A DNA stretch of 64,000 bases from Anaerolineales bacterium (GCA_016785015.1 JADHTJ010000004.1:16142-80141), one strand, 5' to 3'; counted from the stretch's first letter, positions 1,673 through 60,566 are shown. Notes: a model not told the origin generated them from the letters alone. Program-made: numbers and translations.

Positions 1673-3106
1673 TTATGGCAAATTGAATTTAGATGTCCAA
1701 TCATTCCCGATGATGATTTCAACATCAAAGGGATGCGCGGGGTCATATTTATAAGAAATATAACGCCCCTCAATTCCAAGAAGCGAAACTACATATTGAA
1801 CGGTATATGGGCGACCTGAATGATCGATCACCGTTGTATAAGTATGGCTTTCATTGGCATTGCGAACTTCAATGATTCGGGCTCCCTGAGAAGTTAGATA
1901 ATTTCCTGTGCGTCTGGCAATATTAGGATCGCTGCTGCCATTTTGTACTGAGATACTGGCGCCTTCTAATGACATACGCTCCTGATCGTTTCCTGGGGTG
2001 AGAGGGCCAAGCACGCCCGAAGTGGCAAATATCTCATCCCGCAAAACGCGAATCTTGTCAGGATACGGAACCAGAACGCTCAATTCATCAGGTGACCAAC
2101 CAAAAGCTACGTGTCGGATATCAATCACATCATTGACAATGCTTCCATCTGGAACCTGTGCTGCCAAGACGGCCAGTTTGATCAATTCATCCAACTGCAT
2201 ATTGGTATTGACGCCGCCGACAAGTTCACGGTAAAGGGCGGGTGCTTTCTCGATCAACGTGGGCAGCATCTCAAAATCGATGATACGGTCACGAATGCCC
2301 AATATAACCTGCTGCTGCCGGCGGGCACGGCCAAAATCACCATCTCCTGTGCTGCGATTTCGGGCATAGGCCAGCGCCAAATCTCCAGGTAAAGTTTGAA
2401 CACCGGGCCGGATGATTTTGTTCTCGTCTCCAATGGGATCGACTTCAATCTGATCGGGGATATCAAGTTTGACTCCACCTAATTCGTCAATGAAGCGCAC
2501 AAAAGCGCCAAAGTCAACTACGGCGTAATAGTGAATGGGCACACCGATGACCAACTCAACAGTTCTCACCGCTAAGCTCGGACCGCCGATAGCGTGTGCA
2601 GTATTGATCTTGGCATGAATATACCCGGGAATTCCCACCCAAAGATCTCGCGGTACCGAGAGCATCCCCGCCGTTTTGGTGACTGGATCTAAGGTCATCA
2701 ACATCATGGTATCAGAGCGAGCTGCACCTTCTCCGGCGATCCAATCGCGGTAATCCACACCCATCACCAAAATCGTGACACGCTCTTTGCCATCCCAGGA
2801 TGTTAGCGTCGCTTCTGGAAATTCAGTGCTCAACGGAGTCGGCAGAAAAGTAGGTTGACCAAGCTCCACTGTCAGAGATGGCACGCCTTCTATCGTTGCC
2901 GTTGGCGGTTGAAGAACGAGATCTGGGATCGATGTTGGTAAGGGCGGTGCCTGAAAAAGAACCAATTCCCTGGTAATCGCGAATAACGTCCCACCTACGA
3001 AAGCCATAACAATCAGTAATAGAATCCCCAGGATACAGCCTTGAATGATCTTCGGGCGCCCCCTGGGTGGTTTCGTAACTTCAGGATTCATTTTTTCGGA
3101 TTTCAT
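1673..3106 (-). CDS. LytR-CpsA-Psr (LCP) family glycopolymer-to-cell-wall phosphotransferase, membrane anchored, with LytR_C-like C-terminal domain
   Basis: 477 aa. It has an N-terminal TM anchor ([20 protein letters not shown]) and LCP core blocks ([67 protein letters not shown]). The C-terminal segment ([27 protein letters not shown]...) resembles LytR_C. Confidence 0.85.
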
Positions 3107-3109
3107 GAG

Positions 3110-4435
3110 CTAGGGTGTTGATGTCTCTGTGGGAATTTGGGTGAATGTCTCTGTGGGAGCCGGTATGGATGTAAAGGTATTCGTGGGCAGGGGAGTATAG
3201 GTTTCAGTTGGGGCAGGTGCAGATGTAAAAGTTTCTGTAGGAGAGGAAATGGTTGTTTCAGTCTCCGTAGGCGTTGGCGTTTCAGACGCCGCCAAAGTCG
3301 TTGGGGTTTCGCTTGGACCCGTGGTGAATGTCGCCGTTGGCAAGTTGGATGTGTTGGTTGGGGTAGGTGTACTCGTTAGCGAGGGGCCGATTGTGGGTGT
3401 AAATGTGATCGTTGCAGTGCCCGAAGGCGCGGGAGAAGGAGTAGGTGTCCAAGTTGGTGGTGAACAAATGTATGCGACTTGGGTGAGCGTTTGTGCCACT
3501 TCTTCCACTGGTCTGTATGCCAATGCCAGCTCATATTGAACTTGGGCCTCGCAATACATCTCCTCAGATGCCAATTGCTCTCCATAGTGAATTAACGACT
3601 GCCGATATCGCTCTCCAGCAGACCACCCCGAACCGTCGCGCAGGCCTGGTACCGCAGCCGCTATCTGGCCAAAATACCGCACCGCTTGTTCGGGGTAGGC
3701 TTCCCAATACCCTAAGGCTGAAAGGTAAAGCCTGGCCCAATCACGATAAACCGTAGCCTGATAATCTAACGGGCCAAACTTTTCAGACAGTGCGAGATCA
3801 TATATGCCCCCTTCCAAATCCCCTAAAATCAAGATCTTTTGTTCACCGCGATTTCGAAGCGCGGCAAACAAAACATCATCGACTTCAACAGCACGATAGT
3901 TTAATTCTTCATTACGCAGCACGACCAAGGCTTCGATGGCGCCATCCCAATCCCCAGCGCTCATCAGGGAACGAGCCCGGTTTAGGATCGAATCTGAACC
4001 ACTTAGATCCCTGGTTGGGGTGATTGTTATCGTTGGGGTGGGTGTAGATGTAGGAGGGATTGGAGTAAATGTCGCTGTTGCATTTTGAATAGCTAAAATC
4101 TCGCCCAACAGACTCCAAGCCAGGGGAAAATCATCGGGGGCAAAGGCTATCACATACTCAAATCGCTGCCGGGCAAGATCATAACGCCCAGCTTCGAAAT
4201 CTTGAACACCTAAGTCGAATTGCTCCTGAACGAGACTAGCCTCGCCCCCGCTCCCCCGTTCTGTTAGCTGCCGCTGGCCATCTTGGTATCCAGCCAGCGC
4301 GCCCAATGTTCCAGCAAAGGTCAAAAGCAGGGCAACAAGACAGCCATATAGCAATCGGATAGGAAAATCCTTTTTCACTGGCCGTCTTGGCTTAGGAGTT
4401 GGTTGGGTATCCATGAGAATTGATATTGCCTTCAA
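3110..4435 (-). CDS. membrane-anchored helical-repeat (TPR-like) protein with Thr/Pro-rich linker and tail; function unknown
   Basis: 441 aa. It has a basic N-terminus plus one TM (LLYGCLVALLLTFAGTLGALAG), a helical-repeat middle, a TPIPPTSTPTPTITITPT linker, and a ~110-aa C-terminal tail of degenerate PTETFTS/APAPTETYT repeats. No catalytic motif recognised. The start could be the internal Met at 4414. Confidence 0.6.
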   Translation of the reverse strand: MKAISILMDTQPTPKPRRPVKKDFPIRLLYGCLVALLLTFAGTLGALAGYQDGQRQLTERGSGGEASLVQEQFDLGVQDFEAGRYDLARQRFEYVIAFAPDDFPLAWSLLGEILAIQNATATFTPIPPTSTPTPTITITPTRDLSGSDSILNRARSLMSAGDWDGAIEALVVLRNEELNYRAVEVDDVLFAALRNRGEQKILILGDLEGGIYDLALSEKFGPLDYQATVYRDWARLYLSALGYWEAYPEQAVRYFGQIAAAVPGLRDGSGWSAGERYRQSLIHYGEQLASEEMYCEAQVQYELALAYRPVEEVAQTLTQVAYICSPPTWTPTPSPAPSGTATITFTPTIGPSLTSTPTPTNTSNLPTATFTTGPSETPTTLAASETPTPTETETTISSPTETFTSAPAPTETYTPLPTNTFTSIPAPTETFTQIPTETSTP

Positions 4436-21630: not shown

Positions 21631-22416
21631 TCAGCGGAACATACCGCGTCGGCGCCAATTAATTATTGGAGCCAAAAGGCGGCGAATGAAGTATCGAAAA
21701 TAGATCCACGAAAACCAACTACCGCCCTCCCGGCGATGGATGCGCAGCATCTCCGGCCAGCAGTGTTCATCTGCAGCGATTGTCTTGGCATCATCGTGCA
21801 AGCGGAAATTTGCCCAAATGTGACCTGGGAGATATCGAATCTCGGAAACTTTGGATAATCGCACCCACAGATCGTAATCCATGGCGAAATAGAAACTTGG
21901 ATCCAACGGGCCAACTTCCCGCCACAAATCGGCTCGCCAAAAAGCTGCCTGCTGAGGGATATAGACTCCGCCCCTTCGCAGACGCGTGTAGCTAGTCTGC
22001 TGGGCGTTAAATTTACCAATCATCTGGTCATCGGCAGCGATGAAGTTCGCATCGCCATAAACCATGCCAATTTCGGAATTCACCTGTAAGAACTTCACCG
22101 CTTCAGAGATTGCTCCAGGCTGGTACGTATCGTCAGAATTCAGCCATGCCAGGATATCACCTTTGGCTTGCGCGAAACCCTTGTTGATGGCCGCCGTTTG
22201 GCCTTGATCCTCTTCGGATACCCACCAGGCGATCTGATCTTGATATTCTTGAATGATGCCAACACTACCATCGCTTGAACCGCCATCAATAACAATATAT
22301 TCTACGTGAGGGTAATCCTGCTGCAATATCGAGAGAATTGTCGCTTCTAGATATTTGGCCTGATTAAAGGATGGAGTAACAATAGAAACTAGCGGATGCT
22401 GATCCACTGATTCCAT
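21631..22416 (-). CDS. glycosyltransferase family 2 (GT-A fold)
   Basis: 261 aa with [44 protein letters not shown] and the DxD-type block AWLNSDDTY. It is a paralogue of the N-terminal domain of the next gene upstream. Confidence 0.85.
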
Positions 22417-24260
22417 TCCTCTTCAGAGTAGAATTTTTCGATCACATCCGCGGTCAGGTGCTTTACTCGGGCGATCTCATCTTCAGTAAGACGATGCATC
22501 CAATTGAACAAATTTTCCCGGCTATCTAGCTGCGTAGAAAATTCTTTCTGTCTTGGCTGCTCGGGAGGGTTCTTTGGGCGAGTAGATCGCATAATCGAAT
22601 GGCTAACCCAAGGGGTAAAAGAAAGCCCCAAGGCATCGTACATTTCATGGTATCCCTCTGTGGGTTGTAGTGAAATATCTTCATGCCTCACCACCACAAA
22701 ATCCGGATGTGTTTCTTTATATCGGTCCACGACACAATAAACCATGCGCCACAGAAGGGCACCCTGTCCGATAATATCATCATCCAAACCTAACATTCCT
22801 TCCATGTCTTCTTTGAAGGGTTGCAAGTGATCACGCATTAAGAGTGGTTGATCCAAGATATTCTGAAAATCGAAAGTCCATCCTAATCGTTTGAGGCTGC
22901 TGACGAAAGCTACTGGATGCCGCACAACGATAACAATTTTGCATCCCAAACGTTTTGCAAACCAAGGGCAGGAGAATACGGCAAATGGATCTTTAAGCAA
23001 TGGCCGCGCATCGGTAAGATTCCCCTGAAGAAAGCGCCACATATCCCGCAGCATGCGACCAAAATCCCGGGGCGAACGAATTGAGAGAATCTCGGTACTG
23101 AAGTGATAACGATATTCAACAGTTTCACTCAGGGCAGGGAGAAAATTGTTTTCGTTTTCGTCGCAGATATATTGGTACCAATGCTCGACCGGTTTGCGCA
23201 TCACCCCAGGCCGATGCCAAAGGTTAAGAGGTTCGCTGAGATAAATCACATCCTTGCTGGCAGCGATCATCTTGCCAACCCATGTCGTTCCAGAGCGATG
23301 TACACCCGTAATGAGTATTGGCGCACTGCGCCCCTCGATCCTTAGGCCTGGCCATGTTTTTAGGCGAGGATCATCACCCACATCCGGCCGAAAATGCACC
23401 ATCAAAGAGTAGTACCAATCCGCAGTGCCGCTCCAACCGAGAAGGCTCAAAAAGGCATAGATTATGCGGTGCCAATAGAATTTGAGCAAACGCGGGTTTC
23501 GGATAGTTGCCCGCCAGTAATCTCGCAATGCAGGGCCGGGCAATCCACCTTCAAGTAAATAACGTCCACTGATGCGGAAGGCGCCGCCTAATATTCTTCT
23601 CTTAAGTTTCTTTAGTGAGGGCTGTAATGAACTGCGGGTTTGCATCCAATCGAGGACATGAAAAACTTCGGTGCTGAATTCAGCCGCGCGAGCTACATTT
23701 TTCGCTTCTCGATGATGTCGAGCACCGGCCCAAATTTCGGGGATGTGCTTGACTTCTGAGATTTCAGCAATTCGCAGCCACAGATGATGATCAAGTAGAT
23801 AATGGTAATTAGAGTCTAGAAAACCAACCTTCTGAAGGGGGTCCCGCCGCATAAACACTGCAGGCTGACAAATAATGTTGTAACACATCAACTCATCCAA
23901 ACCCAAATCACCAAAGGTTTGATTGTGAAGAGGGTACCCATTAGCGTCCATCGAGATGGCATTGCCAAATACCATTCCTATATCCGGATTTTCGTCCAGC
24001 GCGCTAACCGCCTGTGATATAGCATCCGGGAAATAAATGTCATCAGAATTCAACCAGGCCACCACATCCCCCTGCGCCCTTTTCAACCCTTTATTGATCG
24101 CCTCTGCCTGACCTTTGTCTGATTCCGATACCCACCAGGCTAAATGATCAGCATACTTCTTGATGATATCCACACTTCCATCTGTTGACGCCCCATCGAC
24201 GATGATATATTCGATATTGGGATAATCTTGCGCCAACACCGAACGAATGGTATCTTCCAA
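22389..24260 (-). CDS. bifunctional GT2 glycosyltransferase / sulfotransferase fusion protein
   Basis: The N-terminal GT2 domain shows [17 protein letters not shown] and AWLNSDDIY. The C-terminal sulfotransferase domain shows a 5'-PSB-like [18 protein letters not shown] and a 3'-PB-like [12 protein letters not shown]. The track start (TTG 24260) cuts off the conserved first strand. The frame stays open upstream and encodes [15 protein letters not shown], so the true start may be non-canonical near 24323. Confidence 0.75.
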
Positions 24261-24331
24261 AAACTGCGCCTGGTTATAGGATGGAGTAATAATAGAAACG
24301 AGTGGTTGCTTTTTAGAATTCAGGATTTGCC

Positions 24332-25879
24332 TTACCTTTTGAGATTAAAAATAATATATCCGTCGCCCTCGGCGAATACTTCATAATTCGAGTAGAGTAT
24401 TTCTTTCAGTTCAGGGGTGTTATTCAATTCACCAATTTGGGTGGTCACAAAGTAATCATAATTATTGATGGCATCAAAACTGTTCTCCAACACATCTTTC
24501 TCTGATGCTCCTGCTAAAACTCGCAAATTTACATCACCAGGTCGAATCCAGGGATCGTTGGGAACCCAACCATAATAGCTGAGCGTGTGCCCGTAAGCCT
24601 GACTCATTGCAAGGACACGTGCTCCAGGTTCAATGAATTCGCCAACTTCTTCGTAGAAAGCCGCATCGCCACGATAGTCTGTGCGGATCAGATTTACGCG
24701 TACATCCCAAACCTTGAAGAAAGCTCCTGCAAATAGCAAAAGGACAACAATTGCTCGAACCCAGTTCCCTTTCTCAACAGAGGCGATGCGAGACAAAAAT
24801 TCAGAAGCAACAACAGTAATCGAGATAGCAACAATCAGAATCAGAGGAAGCTGATAATAATCGTGAGTCAGGGTGTGATAGGGGAATGTCATGCTATAAG
24901 CAAAATACCCCAACCAAAGGCCCCCTAGAAGTCCGCGTTTCCCTTTATCTGCTATCATGAAAATACTGGCAAGAGCCACTAGAACTGTGCCAAACCCGCT
25001 GATATTGGTGGCCATTTCCTGCCAGCGGATATAAAAAGCTGGATCCCGCCACATGGCTGGAAAAAAACGATAATCGAGCTGCTGCTGCAAAAATCCAGCA
25101 ATCCACAGTCCGAAAATATAGAATAGAGTCATTGGCAGTACCGTCAAAAACCCCATGACCCAAATCTGTTTATCGCGCAGTGCCTGACGAAAGCCTATGC
25201 CTAAAAGAATTAATCCAATAAACGCTCCACCAACAAAGAAGACAGCCACGCTCTTTACATATATTGCCAAGCCCCCAATGATCCCAGCTAGAATTGCCAT
25301 CCGAAATGATCTAATTTGATACCAACGGATCACAGCCAAAATCGACCAGGCAAATAGGGCGGTCATCAAAGGGTCTGGTTGAAATGTTCGAGTTGCATAA
25401 ATACTGTAGGGCAGGAACAGCAAATAAAACATTGCTACAAGGCCCCCGTCAAAGGTGGCTAAATCCCGTCCCAGCAACAAAACTGCTACGCCTGCACTGA
25501 TCCAGAAAAGAGAAGACAAGAGCCGCGGAATCCACAGATACTCTCCTCCTACAAGATGATACAACCACGCCGCTAATTGCTCCATCACCTGGGGTTCAAT
25601 GATCGCCTCTTTATTTGCCGATTCAAGTGCCGAATCTCGCTGCCAATCTGGTACGTGTTCTAGATTTTCATAGTACAGTCCACGCGCAATAATGGCGGCT
25701 CGAGTTTGACGGGTAGCATGAAAGTCAAAAGGCAAGTCAGTCAGATCATAAGCACGAATTCCCAAACCCAAAGTAAGTGCCAAAATCACGACGGTCCAAA
25801 AGAGCCATTGGGATATAAAGAATCGCTTCGATTGTAAATTCAATTCATTGTCGGTCATAATTACGAAAAAATTCGCCAA
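24332..25879 (-). CDS. GT-C family glycosyltransferase candidate (ArnT/GT39/GT83-like), tandem paralogue 1
   Basis: 515 aa and polytopic. N-terminal third: [15 protein letters not shown]...[47 protein letters not shown]...[10 protein letters not shown]. It is clearly homologous along its length to the next gene (e.g. [15 protein letters not shown] vs DADYFVVTAKNQLNN). Confidence 0.5.
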
Positions 25880-30914: not shown

Positions 30915-31886
30915 CTACTCTTCAACATCTCCATATTTAATTGGTTCGATTTTGCGTGGGGCAGGCGTTTTTTCTGAAAGAATCCCTGGGGGATAATAAA
31001 ATGCCCGATGAAGCTGCGCATCAATTTTTCCAGAGTACCGATACCCCTGATATGTACCCAGATATTGCAAAAACCGGAACCAAAAAATACTAGTCCAATG
31101 CTGTCCTAGTACATTTTCTCGTCGCGCTTGCAACAGATCAGAGTAAGTCATACTCAACCACAAGCGCAAAAAATTCCATAATGAAAAATCGCTCTCGGGA
31201 AGAATTTGCTTCATTGCAATGGCTTCGCGTCGATAGCGGTTATGAACTTGGGCGGGTGTTTCATCGTGAACATGCACAATTTCCGCCTCAGCCACATACG
31301 AAATGTCAAATCCTTCACCCATGGCCCAACTGCTCCAGGCCAAATCTTCTAGGCCAGTAACATGTTCATTGTAGGGATGTTTCTCCCATAGATCGCGACG
31401 AACTGCCGCGTTGGCGTTGTGGGAATAAGCGTGCCCTTGACGAGGCTGCGAGGTATCCGGAAAATATTGACGGAAAAACTGGTGCTCAGAATATTGATTG
31501 GTATCGGCGCCACGTTGCTTGCCGTAACTTACAGCCACCTGTTCATCAGCCAATGGATTCAGTAGCTGCTCTAGCCAATCGGGGTAAACGGGATAACAAT
31601 GCGCACTGATGATGACGATATACTTTCCCCCTGCCGCTTCGATGCCCCAATTCAAGGAACGCCCAAAAGTGAATTCTTCAGGCTGAATATTTACTATTTT
31701 TACTGGATAGCGAGAAGCAATCGCGACGGTTTCGTCGGTAGAACCAGAATCTACTAAAACGATTTCTACATCTTCGATAGTCTGCTGGGTGATACCTTCC
31801 AGCAAGCGGCCGATATGTTCAGCTTCGTTATACGCCCGGATCACCACCGAGCACAGTGGACGTTCACCAGTCATTTGTTCTTTCAT
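30915..31886 (-). CDS. glycosyltransferase family 2 (GT-A fold)
   Basis: 323 aa with CSVVIRAYNEAEHIGRLLEGITQQTIEDVEIVLVDSGSTDET. The start may be the Met at 31874. Confidence 0.8.
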   Translation of the reverse strand: MKEQMTGERPLCSVVIRAYNEAEHIGRLLEGITQQTIEDVEIVLVDSGSTDETVAIASRYPVKIVNIQPEEFTFGRSLNWGIEAAGGKYIVIISAHCYPVYPDWLEQLLNPLADEQVAVSYGKQRGADTNQYSEHQFFRQYFPDTSQPRQGHAYSHNANAAVRRDLWEKHPYNEHVTGLEDLAWSSWAMGEGFDISYVAEAEIVHVHDETPAQVHNRYRREAIAMKQILPESDFSLWNFLRLWLSMTYSDLLQARRENVLGQHWTSIFWFRFLQYLGTYQGYRYSGKIDAQLHRAFYYPPGILSEKTPAPRKIEPIKYGDVEE

Positions 31887-32715
31887 ATCCCAAACGTACC
31901 AACAAATCTCCAGTCGTCTCTTTGAATATTTTTTTATGTTCCTCGTTGAATGACTCGCACCATTTGCCTATTTTGCCACTTCTAAAGGTGGGGGATTTTT
32001 GGGGATCAATGGCGGACTCCAGTATATTAAGCGCTTCCTGTTCCCCTACTTGGACTGGGAAGCCGCGACCTCGGGCATGATTCAACACCTTGAGCAGAGT
32101 TACCTCTTTTTGGGTGATGAAATCTTCAAATTGCAAAATCAAAACTTCGGGACGTTCGAGCCAACCCAAATAAGGTTCAAGGCGCACGCAAATATCAGGG
32201 AAAGGGATCTCTAGCTCTGGTCTGCCAAGGATACTCGTTCTGAGACGTTCATCAAAATTATTCAATTCATAGCGATAATGCTGATGATGCACATGGTTCG
32301 GTTCCATCTCTGTTACATAATGCACATGAGAGACACAAACGTCACGCGGATCGCGCAGGATGAAAAAAGGCGCAACGCCATCTTGAGTAAAAAGTGAGAC
32401 AACTTCCGGGAGGGCGTGTAAATGGCCATACGCGATATCACCAGGGCGAAAGCGCTTCAAATCTTGAATAATGGCATGCATCGGCCGAGGTTGACCAGTT
32501 GGGCCGTCAAAAGTAACCACAGCAGGTAGGCCGCTATCGACCGCCGGACCAAGCTGAGTCAGCCCTTGTAAAACTTGGGTTAAGAGGTGAGTACCACTCT
32601 TGGGGAACGAATTGGCGAAAAAAATTGGGAATCCACGTAGAGAACCATATTGAGCGATTACTCTCATGCGACGGTATTGCCAGCGAGCTAGCTTGAGCCA
32701 GGTTCGATAACTCAC
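31864..32715 (-). CDS. sulfotransferase (PAPS-dependent)
   Basis: 283 aa with the 5'-PSB motif FPKSGTHLLTQVL and the 3'-PB motif ILRDPRDVCVSHV. Its ATG overlaps the upstream stop (ATGA). Confidence 0.8.
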   Translation of the reverse strand: MSYRTWLKLARWQYRRMRVIAQYGSLRGFPIFFANSFPKSGTHLLTQVLQGLTQLGPAVDSGLPAVVTFDGPTGQPRPMHAIIQDLKRFRPGDIAYGHLHALPEVVSLFTQDGVAPFFILRDPRDVCVSHVHYVTEMEPNHVHHQHYRYELNNFDERLRTSILGRPELEIPFPDICVRLEPYLGWLERPEVLILQFEDFITQKEVTLLKVLNHARGRGFPVQVGEQEALNILESAIDPQKSPTFRSGKIGKWCESFNEEHKKIFKETTGDLLVRLGYERTNDW

Positions 32716-34540: not shown

Positions 34541-36430
34541 TCAATCCTTGGCTGTCGCTTCGATATATGCGTCCGATAGCCTGTTAATAGCAACGATGAA
34601 TCCTTCACCGCCGCGCTGATGCCCACGCCATATCTCTGGGATCATTGTGCCGTGATAATCTTTGACAATTTTGAAGAACCTGACCCAATCAATATTGCCT
34701 TGGCCAACCTGCAACCCTTCTCCGTCTATTCCAGCCGCATCAGAAAGGTGCAAATGTGAGATATAAGGCAAAATGACTTCGACTTGCTCATAAAAATCTA
34801 CCTTAGCCCAATTGCAATACAGCTTATGGTGCGATGTATCATAGCAAGTCATCATGCCCATCGAATCAAGGAATTCCTTGATCTCATGAGTATCCATAAA
34901 AGCATTGGTCAACCACTGACCACCGAAATACCAGGGGTGAGGCGGCAAGTTTTCGATTAACACTTCTACGCCATCGCAGTCAAGTTCTTCTACGGAACGC
35001 TTAAGATTATCGTACAATCCTTGACGGTCCGTTATTGGGTTGTCAATGCTGGCCGCTCCAGGATGTACGACTACTTTCGGGGTACCCACAAAATGCGGGG
35101 CCATATCTCGAGTGACATTGATGGCCCTTTGCAGGATATTCACGGAAGCCCTGCGATGGTCATCATCAAAGGTGCATAAATCCACCAAATGGTTCGTCCA
35201 AAATTCAGGTGCATGGATAACTAATTGAACATCTAGATCATCCCCAGGGTAAGGTTCATCCAGGTCTTTATCTGTAAAATGGAATTCCAACAGAGGTGGA
35301 TCATACTTGAGCATATTTCTAAAATCATTGAAACGTACAACGAAGCCCCACTCCATAGGCAGGGTATGCTCCATATCGAGCGTCACCCGGCGACCGATAT
35401 CAACGGGCAAATATGGCTCGTCAGCTTCAATGTCTCGCACAGATACTCGGCCAATCAAATCAGTATAACGCTGCGGAGATAGCCCCTGGCCAGGACCCTT
35501 TACCGTCACCATTTCACGAGTAATCTCTTCCCCGGGCTTAATATGCCGTGTTGCCACCAAACTCTTGGCCAGAACTTCACGGTTGAGTATCTCGCCCATA
35601 GTAAAGAATTTCTCTTCACTAGTACCCATAGCAATTGATATCTGCCGGATATCTCGCACCATTTTCTTGAACCCATGGGGTTCGAGGCTCGAGGCATGAT
35701 CAGGCCCATCCATGGTGCGGTCGAGTGTAATATGGCGTTCAATAATACTGGCACCCAATGCGGCAGCCACTGTTGATACCGAGATCCCGCGTTCATGCCC
35801 TGAATATCCGACCGGTACACCATAGTCACGTAGGCGATCCATAAAACGCAAATTGATATCACCGAATGCCGCCGGATAGGCACTGTTACAATGCAATAGC
35901 GCGAATTCCGCATCGCGTTCCTTGAGAAACGCGACTGTCGTTTCAACTTCTTCCATGCGAGACATGCCCGTTGATACGATCAGCGGTTTGCCTTTGTCGA
36001 TGAGATAATCGATTAAGGGCAAATTGATCATATCTGCTGAGGCAACTTTGAATGCGGGCACCCCCAAAGATTCGATAAAATCGGCGCTATCCTGATCAAA
36101 GGCTGAACACATGAAGGTCACGCCCTTTTCACGGCAATAGTCAACGATTTTGTGATAGTCAGCATCCGAGAGTTCGACTTGCTGCAAAATGGGCAGCAAA
36201 TAATTTAAGTTCTTCTCACCGACATTGGCGTTATCGAGGTATTTTTTGGGGTACAGCTTTTCAAGATTGCGTTTCTGAAATTTAACTGCGTCTACTCCTG
36301 CATCAATTGAAGCATCTATCAATTCGAAAGCGTATTCCAAAATCCCATTATGGTTGACGCCAATTTCAGCAATGATATAAGCCGGATGTCCATCACCAAC
36401 AAGCTGGTCACCAATTTTTATCTCAGGCAT
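34541..36430 (-). CDS. NeuB-family (N-acylneuraminate/ulosonate) synthase with SAF domain fused to a xylose-isomerase-like TIM-barrel (AP_endonuc_2-type) domain
   Basis: 629 aa. The NeuB N-terminus is AYIIAEIGVNHNGILEYAFELIDASIDAGVDAVKFQK, plus LHCNSAYPA and SGHERG. The SAF-like segment is SLVATRHIKPGEEITREMVTVKGPGQG. The C-terminal ~265 aa (LEFHFTDKDL...VVHPGA...ENLPPH...SHLHLSDA) looks like a sugar-phosphate isomerase/epimerase TIM barrel. Confidence 0.7.
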   Translation of the reverse strand: MPEIKIGDQLVGDGHPAYIIAEIGVNHNGILEYAFELIDASIDAGVDAVKFQKRNLEKLYPKKYLDNANVGEKNLNYLLPILQQVELSDADYHKIVDYCREKGVTFMCSAFDQDSADFIESLGVPAFKVASADMINLPLIDYLIDKGKPLIVSTGMSRMEEVETTVAFLKERDAEFALLHCNSAYPAAFGDINLRFMDRLRDYGVPVGYSGHERGISVSTVAAALGASIIERHITLDRTMDGPDHASSLEPHGFKKMVRDIRQISIAMGTSEEKFFTMGEILNREVLAKSLVATRHIKPGEEITREMVTVKGPGQGLSPQRYTDLIGRVSVRDIEADEPYLPVDIGRRVTLDMEHTLPMEWGFVVRFNDFRNMLKYDPPLLEFHFTDKDLDEPYPGDDLDVQLVIHAPEFWTNHLVDLCTFDDDHRRASVNILQRAINVTRDMAPHFVGTPKVVVHPGAASIDNPITDRQGLYDNLKRSVEELDCDGVEVLIENLPPHPWYFGGQWLTNAFMDTHEIKEFLDSMGMMTCYDTSHHKLYCNWAKVDFYEQVEVILPYISHLHLSDAAGIDGEGLQVGQGNIDWVRFFKIVKDYHGTMIPEIWRGHQRGGEGFIVAINRLSDAYIEATAKD

Positions 36431-38261: not shown

Positions 38262-39986
<1,725 letters not shown>

Positions 39987-43824: not shown

Positions 43825-44868
43825 CTACCAATCCAAATCTTTTTCATAACCCCAATCCTGAAGTGTTCTTCCCGCAATCTCTTTGAAAATCTGTTTATCG
43901 CGCTTCGTAAATAGATCACGCCAAGAGCCAGATTTACCTTTCTTCAATGGCTCGACTAACTCGCCAGCTTTCTGACGCTGCCATTGAGCATCGGGGTTGC
44001 TGCCCAACTCTTTCTCTAATATTTCTGGCAAATCAGCTTTTTTTGTTTCAACACCCAAAAATTTCCAGAGGCGTTTCATTTGCTCCCAAGAATTCTTCAG
44101 CAAATCTTCATAACGAACAGATATATATTGTTGATCTCCAAATAATTCTTGACCCATCCGGTTGGTTTCAGTCACATTGCGAACCCAACTTTCTGCAGAA
44201 CGGCGAATCCCCGACTGGGTATATATTGATCGCTCACCATTCATAAATGGTTCAGGGTTCTTTTCGAAATCTTTGCGAATAGCCCAATCTTGCTTGGTGA
44301 GATGCTGCTGCGCATCAATAAACTGCTGGAAGCGGTGTGAAATTACTGCATCACGTCCATCTCGCACAATAAAGATCAATTTGCCCTCAGGGTAAATTTT
44401 CACCATCCTACGTACAGCTTCACCATTGAGTAAACCATTAGGGCTTTTATCCCCCACAACCGTAGCTCCCACCTGCCGGGCTTCGCGTTCCATGACAAAC
44501 TCAACCGCAGCGCGCATCACTACAGGAGAAAGGTCGCCACCGCGATTCCAGCGGTTGCTGCGTCGTGTCAACCAGGATTCAATTGCTTTGCTGTCAACCA
44601 GCCCATCCATTGTAGGTTTGCGAGTGAAAAAATGTCCTTGATAATTACAATGAGCAGCGGGATGGAGACGAATCAAGCGGGTAAGCAGGGTTGTGCCCGA
44701 ACGGGCATGGCCGAAAATAAAAAACTTGTCCAGAGGAAAAAAAACTTTAAATTCAGCTACATCATCAGGTGTGAGGGCAGGGATCTCGCCTCTCGGCTCA
44801 GTTCTTATTTCCCCGGTAAAAAACACTCGGGCTGCTAATTGGATGCGCTTGGAAATTTTGGTAATCAT
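43825..44868 (-). CDS. sulfotransferase (PAPS-dependent)
   Basis: I set the start at ATG 44868 (MITKISKR...), 4 nt after the upstream stop. The track start at 45084 would overlap the upstream gene by 212 nt. The 5'-PSB motif is FIFGHARSGTTLLTRLI and the 3'-PB motif is FIVRDGRDAVISHRF. Confidence 0.8.
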   Translation of the reverse strand: MITKISKRIQLAARVFFTGEIRTEPRGEIPALTPDDVAEFKVFFPLDKFFIFGHARSGTTLLTRLIRLHPAAHCNYQGHFFTRKPTMDGLVDSKAIESWLTRRSNRWNRGGDLSPVVMRAAVEFVMEREARQVGATVVGDKSPNGLLNGEAVRRMVKIYPEGKLIFIVRDGRDAVISHRFQQFIDAQQHLTKQDWAIRKDFEKNPEPFMNGERSIYTQSGIRRSAESWVRNVTETNRMGQELFGDQQYISVRYEDLLKNSWEQMKRLWKFLGVETKKADLPEILEKELGSNPDAQWQRQKAGELVEPLKKGKSGSWRDLFTKRDKQIFKEIAGRTLQDWGYEKDLDW

Positions 44869-44872
44869 ATTT

Positions 44873-46303
44873 TCAATTGAGTAGCGCCAGCAAATATTCC
44901 GCAGTGCGAACCCCAGCTTTGCCATCCGTGAACGTACATTCGCGAGTGATGAAATCTTTCCTGGCATGCTGATCGGCAGCAGAGTCATCCAAATAACGGT
45001 TGATCGCAGCCTGCAACTCAATTTCGTTTTGGGCCTCGCGTCCTGCGTTCGATTCTCTGTACCGCTCGTGGGTAGGCCAGCCACCGATCTTTGTCAGTGG
45101 CAAGGTGAATTTTCCTGGCCAACCTTCAGGAGCATCAATGCATAAACTAATCACCGGCGTTCCATGGAGCGAAGCTTCTACCACCATCGTCGAATAAACC
45201 GTTACCATCACATCAGAATAAGCCATCATTGATGATTTCTCGGGCATATCTTCACCGGAGTAATAACTCATCCCACCTTCTCCCAATGGCACAGGCTCAA
45301 CTACATGAACATGGGGCAATTCCGCAGCAAGCTCTCTAACCCTCTCGCGCTCGGCAGCAAAACGAGGTGTTTCCATGAAATGTGTGGGGTGCAAACGGAT
45401 CAGCAGTTGCGAGGGCAGCGATAACTTTTCTTCAGATACCAATCTCGCTAATGCTTCTACATTCTGGATATTCGGTGAAAAAGTAATAAAGCTGCTGGCG
45501 TAGGAGATCAGTTTTCGATTCGGATCCAGGTTGTGTAGCCTGAAATATTCATCTCGTGCCATCAGCCATTCGCCGCGCACATAGCCATCGTAAGAAGGGA
45601 TGCCCCCAATATTCACGCGTTCGGGAGGCCAGTCCGCACCGAGAACAAGTTCCTCTTTTTGTAGTTCCGACCAACACGATATCCAGTCCACGGGAGCGCC
45701 TGGTAAACTGTAACTGCTGGAGTTATCCCATCCGACGATCACAGCCGCTGTTTCCAAACCGCGTGCAGCAGCTTCTCGGAGCAAGTAACGATCGTAGCGC
45801 CATCCCGGTGTGCTGGCAATCACCAAGTCCGGAGAATATTTCTCAAACAAATCCGCGTAAAGATTGGGATTGAAACGGTTCTGATATCGGACTAACCACC
45901 GACGTATTAGCCAGGAATTTCGCAAGATCTTGATCACCATTCTCATCAAAGGGAACAATGCCTTGCGCTTGGCGTGGGCATCATCTTCGACTTGACCAAT
46001 AAAGCCATCCACAGCTTCCAGGTTGATGCGGTTTGAGGCCCCAGCGCGCCGCAAGAAATGCAGCCACCATTGTAAAGACGGTCTCTCAGTACGTTCATAA
46101 GCCTTGGCTTGTTCCAGACGCAGGCCTTCGACTACCAATCCTTGGCGCCCAAAACGCTGCTGTATCTGATCGATAAGTGCATCATCCGTAAGCAAAACAA
46201 CCTCGACACCAGCTTCAATGAGTGTTGCAATAACATCGCTCTGAAGAAAATAAATTGCTGCTAACCCATGGTCTGCGCAAACAAATATACGCTTTGATGA
46301 CAT
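44873..46303 (-). CDS. GT-B-like glycosyl/glycerophospho-transferase candidate (Capsule_synth/TagF-like layout), function uncertain
   Basis: 476 aa with PDLVIASTPGWRYDRYLLREAAARGLETAAVIVGWDNSSS, then LLIRLHPTHF (RxHP), then ~70 aa later DVMVTVYSTMVVEASLHGTPVISL. No family assigned with confidence. Confidence 0.35.
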   Translation of the reverse strand: MSSKRIFVCADHGLAAIYFLQSDVIATLIEAGVEVVLLTDDALIDQIQQRFGRQGLVVEGLRLEQAKAYERTERPSLQWWLHFLRRAGASNRINLEAVDGFIGQVEDDAHAKRKALFPLMRMVIKILRNSWLIRRWLVRYQNRFNPNLYADLFEKYSPDLVIASTPGWRYDRYLLREAAARGLETAAVIVGWDNSSSYSLPGAPVDWISCWSELQKEELVLGADWPPERVNIGGIPSYDGYVRGEWLMARDEYFRLHNLDPNRKLISYASSFITFSPNIQNVEALARLVSEEKLSLPSQLLIRLHPTHFMETPRFAAERERVRELAAELPHVHVVEPVPLGEGGMSYYSGEDMPEKSSMMAYSDVMVTVYSTMVVEASLHGTPVISLCIDAPEGWPGKFTLPLTKIGGWPTHERYRESNAGREAQNEIELQAAINRYLDDSAADQHARKDFITRECTFTDGKAGVRTAEYLLALLN

Positions 46304-59391: not shown

Positions 59392-59440
59392 GTTGAACGT
59401 TCAACGTTTAAACGTTCAGACGTGTAAACGCTAAACGCCG
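59392..59440. repeat. heptanucleotide array with overlapping perfect palindromes (GTTGAAC GTTCAAC GTTTAAA CGTTCAG ACGTGTA AACGCTA AACGCCG)
   Basis: gttgaacgttcaac and aacgtttaaacgtt are both perfect 14-nt palindromes. The array runs into the stop codon of the NeuB-family gene (59431-59433). Confidence 0.75.
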
Positions 59441-60513
59441 ACATTCTCCCAACGCAGATCCATGCCATACGGCATATCGACCAGCGCTTTCTTACCAACC
59501 AGGTCATCCAACTCCCAGGGCATAATGGCTCCAGAAGCCGCGGGACGCAGGGGTTCTACCATTTCGGCGGTGAGAGTTTCTCCAGCCTTGATATCCCGGG
59601 CAGCGCGCAGGCAGCGGCGTTGGAGCACGTATGTTTCCTTTTCACTTCCGGTAACAAATTTATCGTACGAACCCAGTGATCGTTCCAAAGTGCGAACTTG
59701 ATGAACCATCTCAGCCCAATTTTCGGGGTTCATGGCAAATTTGTGATCAGGGCCTTCGCGATCGTTACTGTCGGTGAAATGCCGCTCAATGACGCGGGCG
59801 CCTAAAGCCACTGCCCCAACAACCGGCGCCGGGCTATGCGTGTGGTCAGAGAGCCCGAGCACTACATCACGGAACATGGCGGCGTAGGTTTTGAGCACAT
59901 TAATATTTAAATTATCATAATTCGAATCTGCTGCGGTGTAATTTGTGTTGCACTGCAAGAGCACAATTTGGTCATTGACAGCCTGCACAGCTCGCATGGC
60001 TCGGACGACATCTCCAATGTCGGCAGCGCCAGTCGCCATCAAGAAGGGTTTGCCCATGCTGGCCATACGCACAAGCACCTCTGGCCAGGACATCAATCCA
60101 GAACCTGCCTTGAAGGCTGGCACATAAGGATCGAGCATCTCGATGGCTTCATAATCATATGGAGAAGAGTAGTAGTGGATGCCAACTTTGTCGCACTCTT
60201 CTTTGAGAATCGGAGTCCACTCGAAAGGCACTGAGGCAGCGTCATAAACTTCGAAGACAGTTTTACTCCATTCTGCCTGATGTGATTGCTGCCCGCCGAG
60301 AGCTTTGAAACCATAATCTGAAACAATTTTTGGGGCGCGGAAATTCTGGAATTTAGCGGCCTCAGCCCCAGCATCTTTTGCCAGTTTGATAAGCGTTTTA
60401 GCACGCTCCAAATCACCATCGTGGTTTGCTGCAATATCAGCAATAAAATATGTTGGGTGGTTGAGGCCAACCTTGCGATTATCAATAGTAATTTCAGGAG
60501 ATGGTGTTTTCAT
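59431..60513 (-). CDS. NeuB-family ulosonic-acid synthase (NeuB/PseI/LegI-like) with SAF domain
   Basis: Start at ATG 60513 (MKTPSPEITIDNRKVG...); the alternative is ATG 60537. Motifs: TYFIADIAANHDGDLERAKTLIKLAKDAGAEAAKFQNF, LLQCNTNYTA, LSDHT. The SAF-like C-terminus is RAARDIKAGETLTAEMVEPLRP. Confidence 0.8.
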   Translation of the reverse strand: MKTPSPEITIDNRKVGLNHPTYFIADIAANHDGDLERAKTLIKLAKDAGAEAAKFQNFRAPKIVSDYGFKALGGQQSHQAEWSKTVFEVYDAASVPFEWTPILKEECDKVGIHYYSSPYDYEAIEMLDPYVPAFKAGSGLMSWPEVLVRMASMGKPFLMATGAADIGDVVRAMRAVQAVNDQIVLLQCNTNYTAADSNYDNLNINVLKTYAAMFRDVVLGLSDHTHSPAPVVGAVALGARVIERHFTDSNDREGPDHKFAMNPENWAEMVHQVRTLERSLGSYDKFVTGSEKETYVLQRRCLRAARDIKAGETLTAEMVEPLRPAASGAIMPWELDDLVGKKALVDMPYGMDLRWENVGV

Positions 60514-60566
60514 AGTTGCACCTCTGTCTTTGAGCATAGCTACGGATGCAGAATTATTCTTTGGTC

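Follow-up and report, generated by a model that had tools for sequence, protein, structure and literature searches.

Repeated loss of ATG from an intact glycosyltransferase-sulfotransferase fusion gene in marine Anaerolineales suggests initiation at a non-canonical codon

Introduction

Where does translation of a conserved enzyme gene begin when no ATG, GTG or TTG codon precedes the codons of its first structural element? This question is raised by a gene on the minus strand of a 64,000-nucleotide (nt) stretch of DNA from an uncultured marine Anaerolineales bacterium (GCA_016785015.1 JADHTJ010000004.1:16142-80141; hereafter the window), which joins a family 2 glycosyltransferase (GT2) domain to a sulfotransferase domain in one open reading frame (ORF). 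An earlier note on this DNA had placed the true N-terminus of the fusion protein upstream of TTG 24260, the first canonical start codon, and had proposed that translation starts at a CTG or ATC codon or, failing this, that the start has been lost and a truncated GT-A domain is made; all coordinates used in that proposal were verified on the minus strand. The best overall explanation of the comparative data presented here, to which we assign a probability of roughly 0.6, is that the gene is intact and under selection, that its ATG was lost to AAG, and that it is translated from a non-canonical start codon, most likely CTG.

Results

The ORF is preceded in frame by the stop codon TAA 24347-24345, from which the frame runs on the minus strand through TCT CAA AAG GTA AGG CAA ATC (24326-24324) CTG (24323-24321) AAT TCT AAA AAG (24311-24309), translated as S Q K V R Q I L N S K K with I encoded by ATC, L by CTG and the last K by AAG 24311. 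Beyond this AAG it continues with CAA CCA CTC GTT TCT ATT ATT ACT CCA and onward to TTT TTG (24260-24258). Within the 27 codons between TAA 24347 and TTG 24260 there is no ATG, GTG or TTG, as had been observed before. Both halves of the encoded protein, whose residues are numbered here from CTG 24323, gave Pfam matches above the curated cut-offs, namely Glycos_transf_2 (PF00535) with 111.2 bits (cut-off 23.3), Sulfotransfer_3 (PF13469) with 37.7 bits (cut-off 27) and Sulfotransfer_1 (PF00685) with 30 bits (cut-off 22). Judged from the sequences, the fusion described in the earlier note is real and common in Anaerolineales, and a protein search returned more than 100 cluster representatives from Anaerolineales/Chloroflexota with the same two-domain architecture.

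Profile, structure and orthologue alignments all place the N-terminus of this protein upstream of TTG 24260. The first position of the Pfam GT2 profile falls on SIITPSYN, 5' of TTG 24260, and the alignments with Pfam and with solved GT2 structures begin at residues 3-10. In an AlphaFold2 model built from 47 homologues (mean predicted local distance difference test score, pLDDT, 88.3), strand beta-1 comprises residues 9-15 and helix alpha-1 residues 19-30, and TTG 24260 corresponds to residue 22 within helix alpha-1, so that a product initiated at this codon would be devoid of beta-1 and of the TPSYN loop. A Foldseek search with the N-terminal domain recovered WrtF, chondroitin polymerase K4CP and SpsA with E-values of about 1e-14. 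In the 47 homologues P7, L8, T13, P14 and S15 never vary, V9 and N17 hardly do, and the acidic residues D43, D94, D95 and D178 are likewise invariant, the window protein included. The resemblance of the upstream stretch to the first beta-strand of the GT2 paralogue encoded downstream was also borne out, the paralogue and the fusion gene sharing 48% identity over 214 residues.

Orthologues reveal the position that the canonical start codon once held. The closest of them (77-87% identity, 639-640 amino acids (aa)) begin with MKPLVS followed by I or V, in full MKPLVSI(V/I)TPSYNQAQF, and they start not at the position equivalent to TTG 24260 but 17 codons upstream of it. In DNA alignments their ATG aligns with AAG 24311-24309 of the window, from which the gene would count 640 codons; neither this correspondence nor the four losses described next had been seen in the earlier note. 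In the following, orthologous loci are designated by our L numbers and public protein models by P numbers. L174 reads TCT AAA ATG AAA CCG where the window reads TCT AAA AAG CAA CCA, and the AAG of the window as well as the ATT of L011 are each one step from this ATG state. The tree together with the L174 sequence indicates that ATG was lost four times independently (to AAG, ATT, ATA and ATA; Table 1) within a clade of at least 83% identity. GTG and TTG are absent from the four replacements and, in the window lineage, the codon following the lost start has also changed, from AAA to CAA, which suggests that initiation competence is not being maintained at the former start. Three additional homologues that appeared to be start-less (P0145, P0066 and P0090) turned out to be artefacts, since their DNA shows a canonical ATG or TTG that had been skipped by the gene caller. 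A scan of metagenome contigs gave no new close relatives among the matches listed, only duplicates of L008, L009 and L010.

Three separate ENA assemblies (L164, L165 and L166; coverage 45x, 6.8x and 5.3x), one of which represents a strain with an M-to-I difference elsewhere, agree in every nucleotide of the start region, and the missing ATG is therefore not an assembly error. Equally untenable, in our view, is an origin of the N-terminus from the upstream PMT_2 gene, whether by programmed frameshifting or by readthrough of the stop codon. Although the two ORFs are only 8-20 nt apart and offset by -1 in the window, this relation is not conserved, as a 1-nt insertion in L011 puts both genes in the same frame. 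In addition, in-frame stop codons stand directly before the ATC-CTG position in L001, L006, L174 and L172, and no slippery heptamer (X XXY YYZ) was found.

Substitution rates estimated by the Nei-Gojobori method revealed strong constraint on the whole gene. Between the window and L011 the synonymous rate (dS) is 0.67 and the non-synonymous rate (dN) 0.038, resulting in a dN/dS of 0.057, with 0.088 for the GT2 domain and 0.044 for the sulfotransferase domain, and the corresponding ratios are 0.037 for L005 compared to L003 and 0.035 for L001 compared to L006. In codons 3-17, from the lost ATG to the TTG, the window differs from L011 by six synonymous and no non-synonymous changes. As far as such alignments can tell, the stretch upstream of TTG 24260 is homologous to the N-termini of the orthologues and under purifying selection. 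This selection on the beta-1 codons makes the second option of the earlier note, a lost start leading to a truncated GT-A domain, unlikely.

All four ATG-less lineages have retained an intact 640-codon ORF with no other lesion. Outgroup-polarised ratios of synonymous to non-synonymous changes were 59:23, 36:12 and 44:16 on the ATG-less branches of the window, L011 and L005, respectively, and 58:16 on the ATG-bearing L003 branch. There are 261 single-nucleotide routes to a nonsense codon in the ORF versus seven from ATG to a non-canonical codon, and the probability that four of four changes would strike the start codon under random inactivation is about 5e-7, which indicates that it is the start codon in particular that changes. 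Either these changes are neutral, another start being available, or they were selected for lowering expression. These counts bear directly on the possibility that the start was lost recently and that the window lineage carries a young pseudogene from which little or no protein is made. Such a scenario would agree with the clonality of the AAG lineage, which leaves room for a recent loss, and with the poor quality of both AAG and CTG as start codons. However, four start-codon changes without another lesion in 640 codons, the similarity of the window branch to the ATG-bearing L003 branch, the occurrence of the ATT variant on 20 contigs from many samples, and dN/dS values of 0.035-0.057 with no sign of relaxed selection or added lesions render a pseudogene improbable.

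The same data argue against a situation in which only the TTG-24260 product is made, with a GT-A domain crippled by the absence of beta-1 and TPSYN and a protein functioning solely as a sulfotransferase. TTG is the first canonical start, and in the comparison of two ATG-less lineages, the window and L011, the dN/dS of the sulfotransferase domain lies slightly below that of the GT2 domain. Yet the GT2 domain is still strongly constrained and its catalytic Asp residues are intact, and the 15 codons 5' of the TTG show the purely synonymous pattern described above. Moreover, L005 carries CTA instead of this TTG, and its first canonical start would remove 46 residues, yet its gene evolves with the low ratio given above. 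In a start-context matrix derived from 30 ATG starts of the window, a weak and small basis, TTG 24260 obtained an unremarkable score of -0.8. We consider an exclusive use of TTG 24260 very improbable.

Since the codons of beta-1 and the TPSYN loop are conserved and part of the GT-A core, a full-length enzyme would have to start non-canonically within 24326-24309, and we regard it as quite probable that initiation is indeed non-canonical and upstream of beta-1. Within this interval CTG 24323 is found in frame four codons before the lost ATG (codon -4) in the window, L011, L174, L003/L004/L007, L005, L001, L006, L172 and L022, and L009 has TTG at this position. It lies within the 8-nt block CTGAATTC, which is conserved without exception in eight aligned lineages that share only 6.4% of their four-fold sites and 17.7% of their third codon positions, and in which invariant runs of at least 8 nt occur only 11 times in the 1920-nt coding sequence. 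The leader contains a single indel, of 1 nt in L011, which falls upstream of CTG. With regard to the preceding gene, CTG follows the PMT_2 stop by 8 nt and AAG by 20 nt, and relatives distant from the window have a gap of 1-4 nt between upstream stop and start. Termination-reinitiation becomes steeply less efficient the farther the start lies from the stop, and hardly any is left at about 20 nt (PMC10666635). In Escherichia coli, initiation from CUG, AUA, AUC and AUU reaches about 1-2% of the AUG level (0.02-3% in a second assay), and that from the other 57 codons, AAG included, 0.01-1% (bioRxiv 10.1101/063800). ATC 24326, which had been put forward together with CTG, is not conserved in related lineages, and an in-frame stop directly precedes its position in L001, L006 and L174; of the two codons proposed earlier, CTG thus held up and ATC appears unlikely. 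Being the sole near-cognate codon in frame in every related lineage, part of an invariant block and located in an unstructured A/T-rich stretch, CTG would be the most likely initiation codon, a choice that we nevertheless make tentatively, with its chances as the main start put somewhat below even.

The leader shows further traces of constraint. AAAGGT 24339-24334 is invariant in eight lineages, and the last sense codon of PMT_2 is AGG in all eight, a codon that accounts for only 5.1% of Arg codons; this constancy hints at a constraint on the Shine-Dalgarno (SD)-like stretch AAGGTAAGG and is not proof of SD function. The duplex predicted with the anti-SD sequence has -6.1 kcal/mol in the window and -7.5 to -13.6 kcal/mol in the orthologues. 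RNA structure was rejected as the cause of the conserved block, as the consensus fold is weak (-7.5 kcal/mol, covariation term +0.8) and the single-sequence fold of the leader is less structured than shuffled controls (z = +1.4).

A possible origin of the conserved block emerges from more distant relatives. The element TCCTGAATT is also present at the gene junction of a clade that is only 49% identical in protein (L176 and L177, both at 540-570, and L019), where the sequence reads CGC GTA AGG TTG GAT TCC TGA A TTG, PMT_2 ends at the TGA inside TCCTGAATT and the fusion gene begins with TTG 1 nt later (MSPRSASPLVS). The junction of L012 (about 1250-1300) reads TCC TGA T ATG, and other relatives have ATG 2-4 nt after the stop. 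In the window clade a 2-nt insertion immediately 5' makes GTAAGG read as a TAA stop, by which about four residues are trimmed off PMT_2, TTC stands in place of the old TTG, the leader is shortened by 8 nt, and a new ATG is found downstream of the junction, the very one that has since been lost four times. TCCTGAATT may accordingly represent an old junction element that is still conserved as non-coding leader sequence, which fits a role in initiation. A junction of another kind was seen in L008 (2930-3000), L010 (1935-2005) and L171 (700-760), all of which keep ATG; here about 75 nt, including an inverted repeat (GGAAGTAGGGAGTAGGGAGTAG ... CTTACTCCCCTACCCC), are inserted directly before the ATG.

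Several observations weigh against initiation at CTG or against the strength of the overall case. By window trinucleotide frequencies, a run of 27 codons free of canonical starts has a chance probability of about 0.16; the length of the gap by itself is thus ordinary, and the case rests on homology and on the comparison with orthologues. Sequences within each ATG-less lineage are clonal, with no synonymous differences, so that purifying selection after the loss can be neither shown directly nor dated, and within-lineage diversity was uninformative for dating the loss of ATG. The element TCCTGAATT (CTGAATT) is read in another frame in the distant clade, and its conservation is therefore not specific evidence for the CTG codon. 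In the context matrix the best candidate is the AAG position, with a score of 3.46 (top 2% of background, above 77% of true starts), as compared to 0.19 for CTG, which equals the median of true starts. Finally, the stretch AAGGTAAGG is indeed located 6 nt before CTG as the earlier note had stated, but the SD argument built on it is weak, because its pairing ranks only in the top 18% of background, and anti-SD pairing at the gene starts of the window is not enriched (median -2.9 kcal/mol versus -3.3 kcal/mol at random positions). As pairing at starts does not exceed background, SD spacing cannot decide between CTG and AAG, and the organism appears to make very little use of SD pairing. At the starts of 49 minus-strand ORFs in the window, leaders are A/T-rich and A is favoured at +4 and +8/+9.

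Part of this evidence would suit a start that has remained at the ancestral position, i.e., at AAG in the window and at ATT or ATA in the sister lineages, acting as a weak near-cognate in an A/T-rich, SD-independent context, with the repeated losses of ATG reflecting selection for lower expression. The superior, genome-typical context of AAG and the independence of the window genes from SD are compatible with this possibility, and three of the four replacements (ATA, ATA and ATT) are among the better near-cognates of E. coli. On the other hand, AAG mismatches at the second codon position and belongs to the 57 codons of the lowest class, the AAA to CAA change in the next codon worsens the context, and no replacement is GTG or TTG as would be expected if competence were preserved. 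Furthermore, AAG is so far from the upstream stop that coupling would be nearly lost, and the invariant CTGAATTC block would be left unexplained. A start at the ancestral position, and with it the use of AAG in the window, is unlikely on balance, without being negligible. CTG and AAG may also both be used, and either product would hold the full GT-A domain. The loss of ATG, the authenticity of the sequence, the intactness and conservation of the ORF and the conservation of the CTG block are thus demonstrated, whereas the choice of codon and the actual production of protein are inferred.

Table 1. Features of the fusion gene, its start region and its surroundings, and codons at the start position of orthologues
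Feature	Window position (nt) or lineages	Strand	Evidence or remarks
GT2-sulfotransferase gene	22389..24323	-	From candidate CTG to stop TAG 22391-22389, 644 codons; translation, Pfam, orthologues
GT2 (GT-A) domain, residues ~7-230	23634..24305	-	Pfam; Foldseek WrtF, K4CP, SpsA
Sulfotransferase domain, residues 335-644	22392..23321	-	PF13469 and PF00685 above cut-offs
Codons of strand beta-1 (VSIITPS) and TPSYN loop, 5' of any canonical start	24273..24299	-	AlphaFold2, Pfam and PDB alignments
TTG, first canonical start	24258..24260	-	Basis of 623-aa gene-caller model (22389-24260); P0126 identical to product
AAG at position of orthologues' ATG (lost canonical start)	24309..24311	-	Alignments
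CTGAATTC, 8-nt block containing CTG	24316..24323	-	Invariant in eight aligned lineages
CTG, most likely initiation codon (candidate)	24321..24323	-	In-frame near-cognate in every lineage examined
ATC, near-cognate from earlier note	24324..24326	-	Not conserved: ACC in L011, ATT in L172, GTC in L022
AAGGTAAGG, purine-rich, SD-like	24330..24338	-	Includes PMT_2 stop TAA 24334-24332; 6 nt before CTG
Upstream PMT_2 (GT-C-like) membrane protein gene	24332..25879	-	Stop TAA 24334-24332, 8 nt before CTG
Downstream GT2 paralogue	21631..22416	-	Overlaps 3' end of fusion gene by 28 nt
PAPS synthase (ATP sulfurylase fused to APS kinase)	38262..39986	-	PF01747, PF01583, PF14306
Further sulfotransferases	31864-32715, 43825-45084		Three sulfotransferase domains in total with the fusion gene
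ATG at start position	L003/L004/L007, L006, L172, L174, L022, L009, L008/L010/L171		
ATA at start position	L001/L002		Sister L006 (99.5% identical) has ATG
ATA at start position	L005		Sisters L003/L007 have ATG
ATT at start position	L011		Closest relative (93.6%); on 20 contigs from many samples
AAG at start position	Window lineage		

The C-terminal half of the fusion protein carries two conserved sulfotransferase motifs. G340, H342, R343, T346 and W348 of the HRSGTTW motif and R468, H469, P470 and S476 of RHPVAFVSS (RHPxxxxxS) are invariant in the 47 homologues; we take the RSGTTW loop to bind the 5'-phosphosulfate and the RHPVAFVSS motif, presumably, the 3'-phosphate of the sulfate donor 3'-phosphoadenosine 5'-phosphosulfate (PAPS). 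No NCBIfam equivalog was reached, the best being TuaG with 89.8 bits (cut-off 400). A sequence search of structures gave no solved sulfotransferase at E <= 0.01, and the top 50 Foldseek matches were all GT-A proteins with no sulfotransferase structure among them. The combination of both domains in one protein may couple the two catalytic steps, and the earlier note had suggested on this basis that one residue is both added and sulfated. The fusion is not universal among close relatives, since the L022 orthologue (3015-4060), which shows 72% identity across residues 1-342, stops after 333 codons without a sulfotransferase domain; a second GT2 gene directly follows it. Some homologues (P0096-P0100) have the sulfotransferase P-loop (PILVTGAHRTGTSW) at the N-terminus and yet GT2 Pfam matches, which indicates that part of the family has a different or reversed domain order.

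Gene order is conserved in that PMT_2 lies upstream of the fusion gene at all orthologous loci. At the other end of the gene, in the overlap 22389-22416, the conserved EEW codons of the fusion gene (GAA TGG) contain the ATG of the downstream paralogue, from which the latter has 261 aa; the 258-aa models of some callers begin at a GTG three codons further on.

Public models of the fusion gene product differ widely. Models of 623 aa (P0002, P0122, P0124, P0126 and P0133), 616 aa (P0129 and P0134), 594 aa (P0123 and P0125) and 539 aa (P0128) all miss the first strand of the catalytic domain, and models of 646 aa (P0127 and P0132) originate from a lineage-specific TTG. Altogether, six different N-termini are found in public databases for one orthologue group, because gene callers cannot use ATA, ATT, AAG or CTG. 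NCBI MBC8507450.1 (P0121) is the same protein, shortened by the end of a contig.

The fusion gene is part of a 64-kb island that is almost wholly encoded on the minus strand. Besides the sulfotransferases and the PAPS synthase, which would supply the sulfate donor, the island encodes two NeuB proteins, one of them fused to a xylose-isomerase-like TIM barrel, three CTP_transf_3 cytidylyltransferases, PseB-like and RmlD-like enzymes, a Capsule_synth protein, an MptE-like protein, an ABC-2 exporter pair, a Wzy_C protein, a LytR-CpsA-Psr protein, three GT-C-like membrane proteins and many GT1, GT2 and GT4 genes. Judging by this gene content, its product is likely a sulfated surface glycan that contains nonulosonic acid. 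Two other stretches of the island (34541-36430 and 59431-60537) were also singled out.

Discussion

In general, our comparisons support a non-canonical start of the fusion gene. The ancestral ATG, which is kept in sister lineages, has mutated to AAG 24311-24309 in the window and, according to the mechanism that we favor, initiation would take place at CTG 24323-24321, 8 nt past the stop codon of the co-directional upstream gene and 6 nt past the SD-like stretch. The downstream ATG would then be dispensable, or initiation at this codon deliberately weakened, either of which would explain why ATG was replaced four times without other damage to the gene. Expression would be expected to be low, given that near-cognate codons reach about 0.02-3% of AUG in E. 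coli. A bolder version of this mechanism, which we put forward as a possibility with rather less confidence, is that CUG serves as a stable initiation codon across at least ten Anaerolineales lineages, lying within TCCTGAATT that would drive initiation after the preceding stop and make the ATG dispensable, and that the enzyme helps to build the sulfated nonulosonic-acid surface glycan.

The gene adds a further case to a known phenomenon, and its comparative signature is unusually clear. If the bolder version is correct, it represents a conserved CUG-initiated gene in an SD-poor bacterium. Start-codon-specific loss of ATG under strong purifying selection constitutes a clean natural case, in which it can be asked whether near-cognate initiation is tolerated or selected in SD-poor bacteria. 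There is also a practical consequence, as callers limited to ATG, GTG and TTG truncate the protein, and surveys of glycosyltransferases that are based on such models inherit the error. The surrounding island, in turn, points to a capacity of marine Anaerolineales for the synthesis of sulfated surface glycans. To our knowledge, Chloroflexota is a phylum not known to make sulfated glycans. In one study of a mat metagenome, no sulfotransferase gene was detected in the two Chloroflexi metagenome-assembled genomes, which were found instead to contain genes for the degradation of sulfated polysaccharides (PMC9723792).

The literature searches brought up no described GT2-sulfotransferase fusion, and the closest known systems each match parts of the protein or its locus. 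The GT-A enzymes SpsA (1qg8), K4CP (2z86) and WrtF (9omh) share with the N-terminal half the fold of beta-1, TPSYN loop and alpha-1 as well as the conserved Asp of VDGxS, the DD of NSDD and LLDHH, but differ in that the fusion protein continues through a helical linker of about 100 residues into a C-terminal sulfotransferase. With respect to the locus, the synechan xss cluster of Synechocystis (PMC8205485) likewise combines a sulfotransferase with glycosyltransferases, exporters and a PAPS synthase, and both PAPS motifs are conserved in the fusion protein; in contrast, the host described here belongs to Chloroflexota and not to cyanobacteria, and its sulfotransferase is fused to a GT2 domain.

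The gene junction resembles that of pairs coupled by termination-reinitiation (Huber et al., PMC6728339, PMC10666635) in that the two genes are co-directional and that distant relatives start 1-4 nt after the stop. In typical coupled pairs the genes share 4 or 1 nt and begin with canonical codons, whereas the junction in the window has an 8-nt gap followed by a candidate CTG.

The AUU codon of infC is the classic near-cognate start, and translation table 11 admits CUG, AUU, AUC and AUA. Similar to genes of this kind, the fusion gene has no canonical start, its near-cognate codon is conserved across relatives, and low efficiency is expected. It differs from them, however, in that ATG was lost repeatedly in a shallow clade rather than a non-canonical start having been fixed anciently, that the host shows little use of SD pairing, and that the codon is a candidate. 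For infC the unusual start follows an autoregulatory logic, of which no counterpart is known for the fusion gene, whose repeated and start-codon-specific loss of ATG sets it apart.

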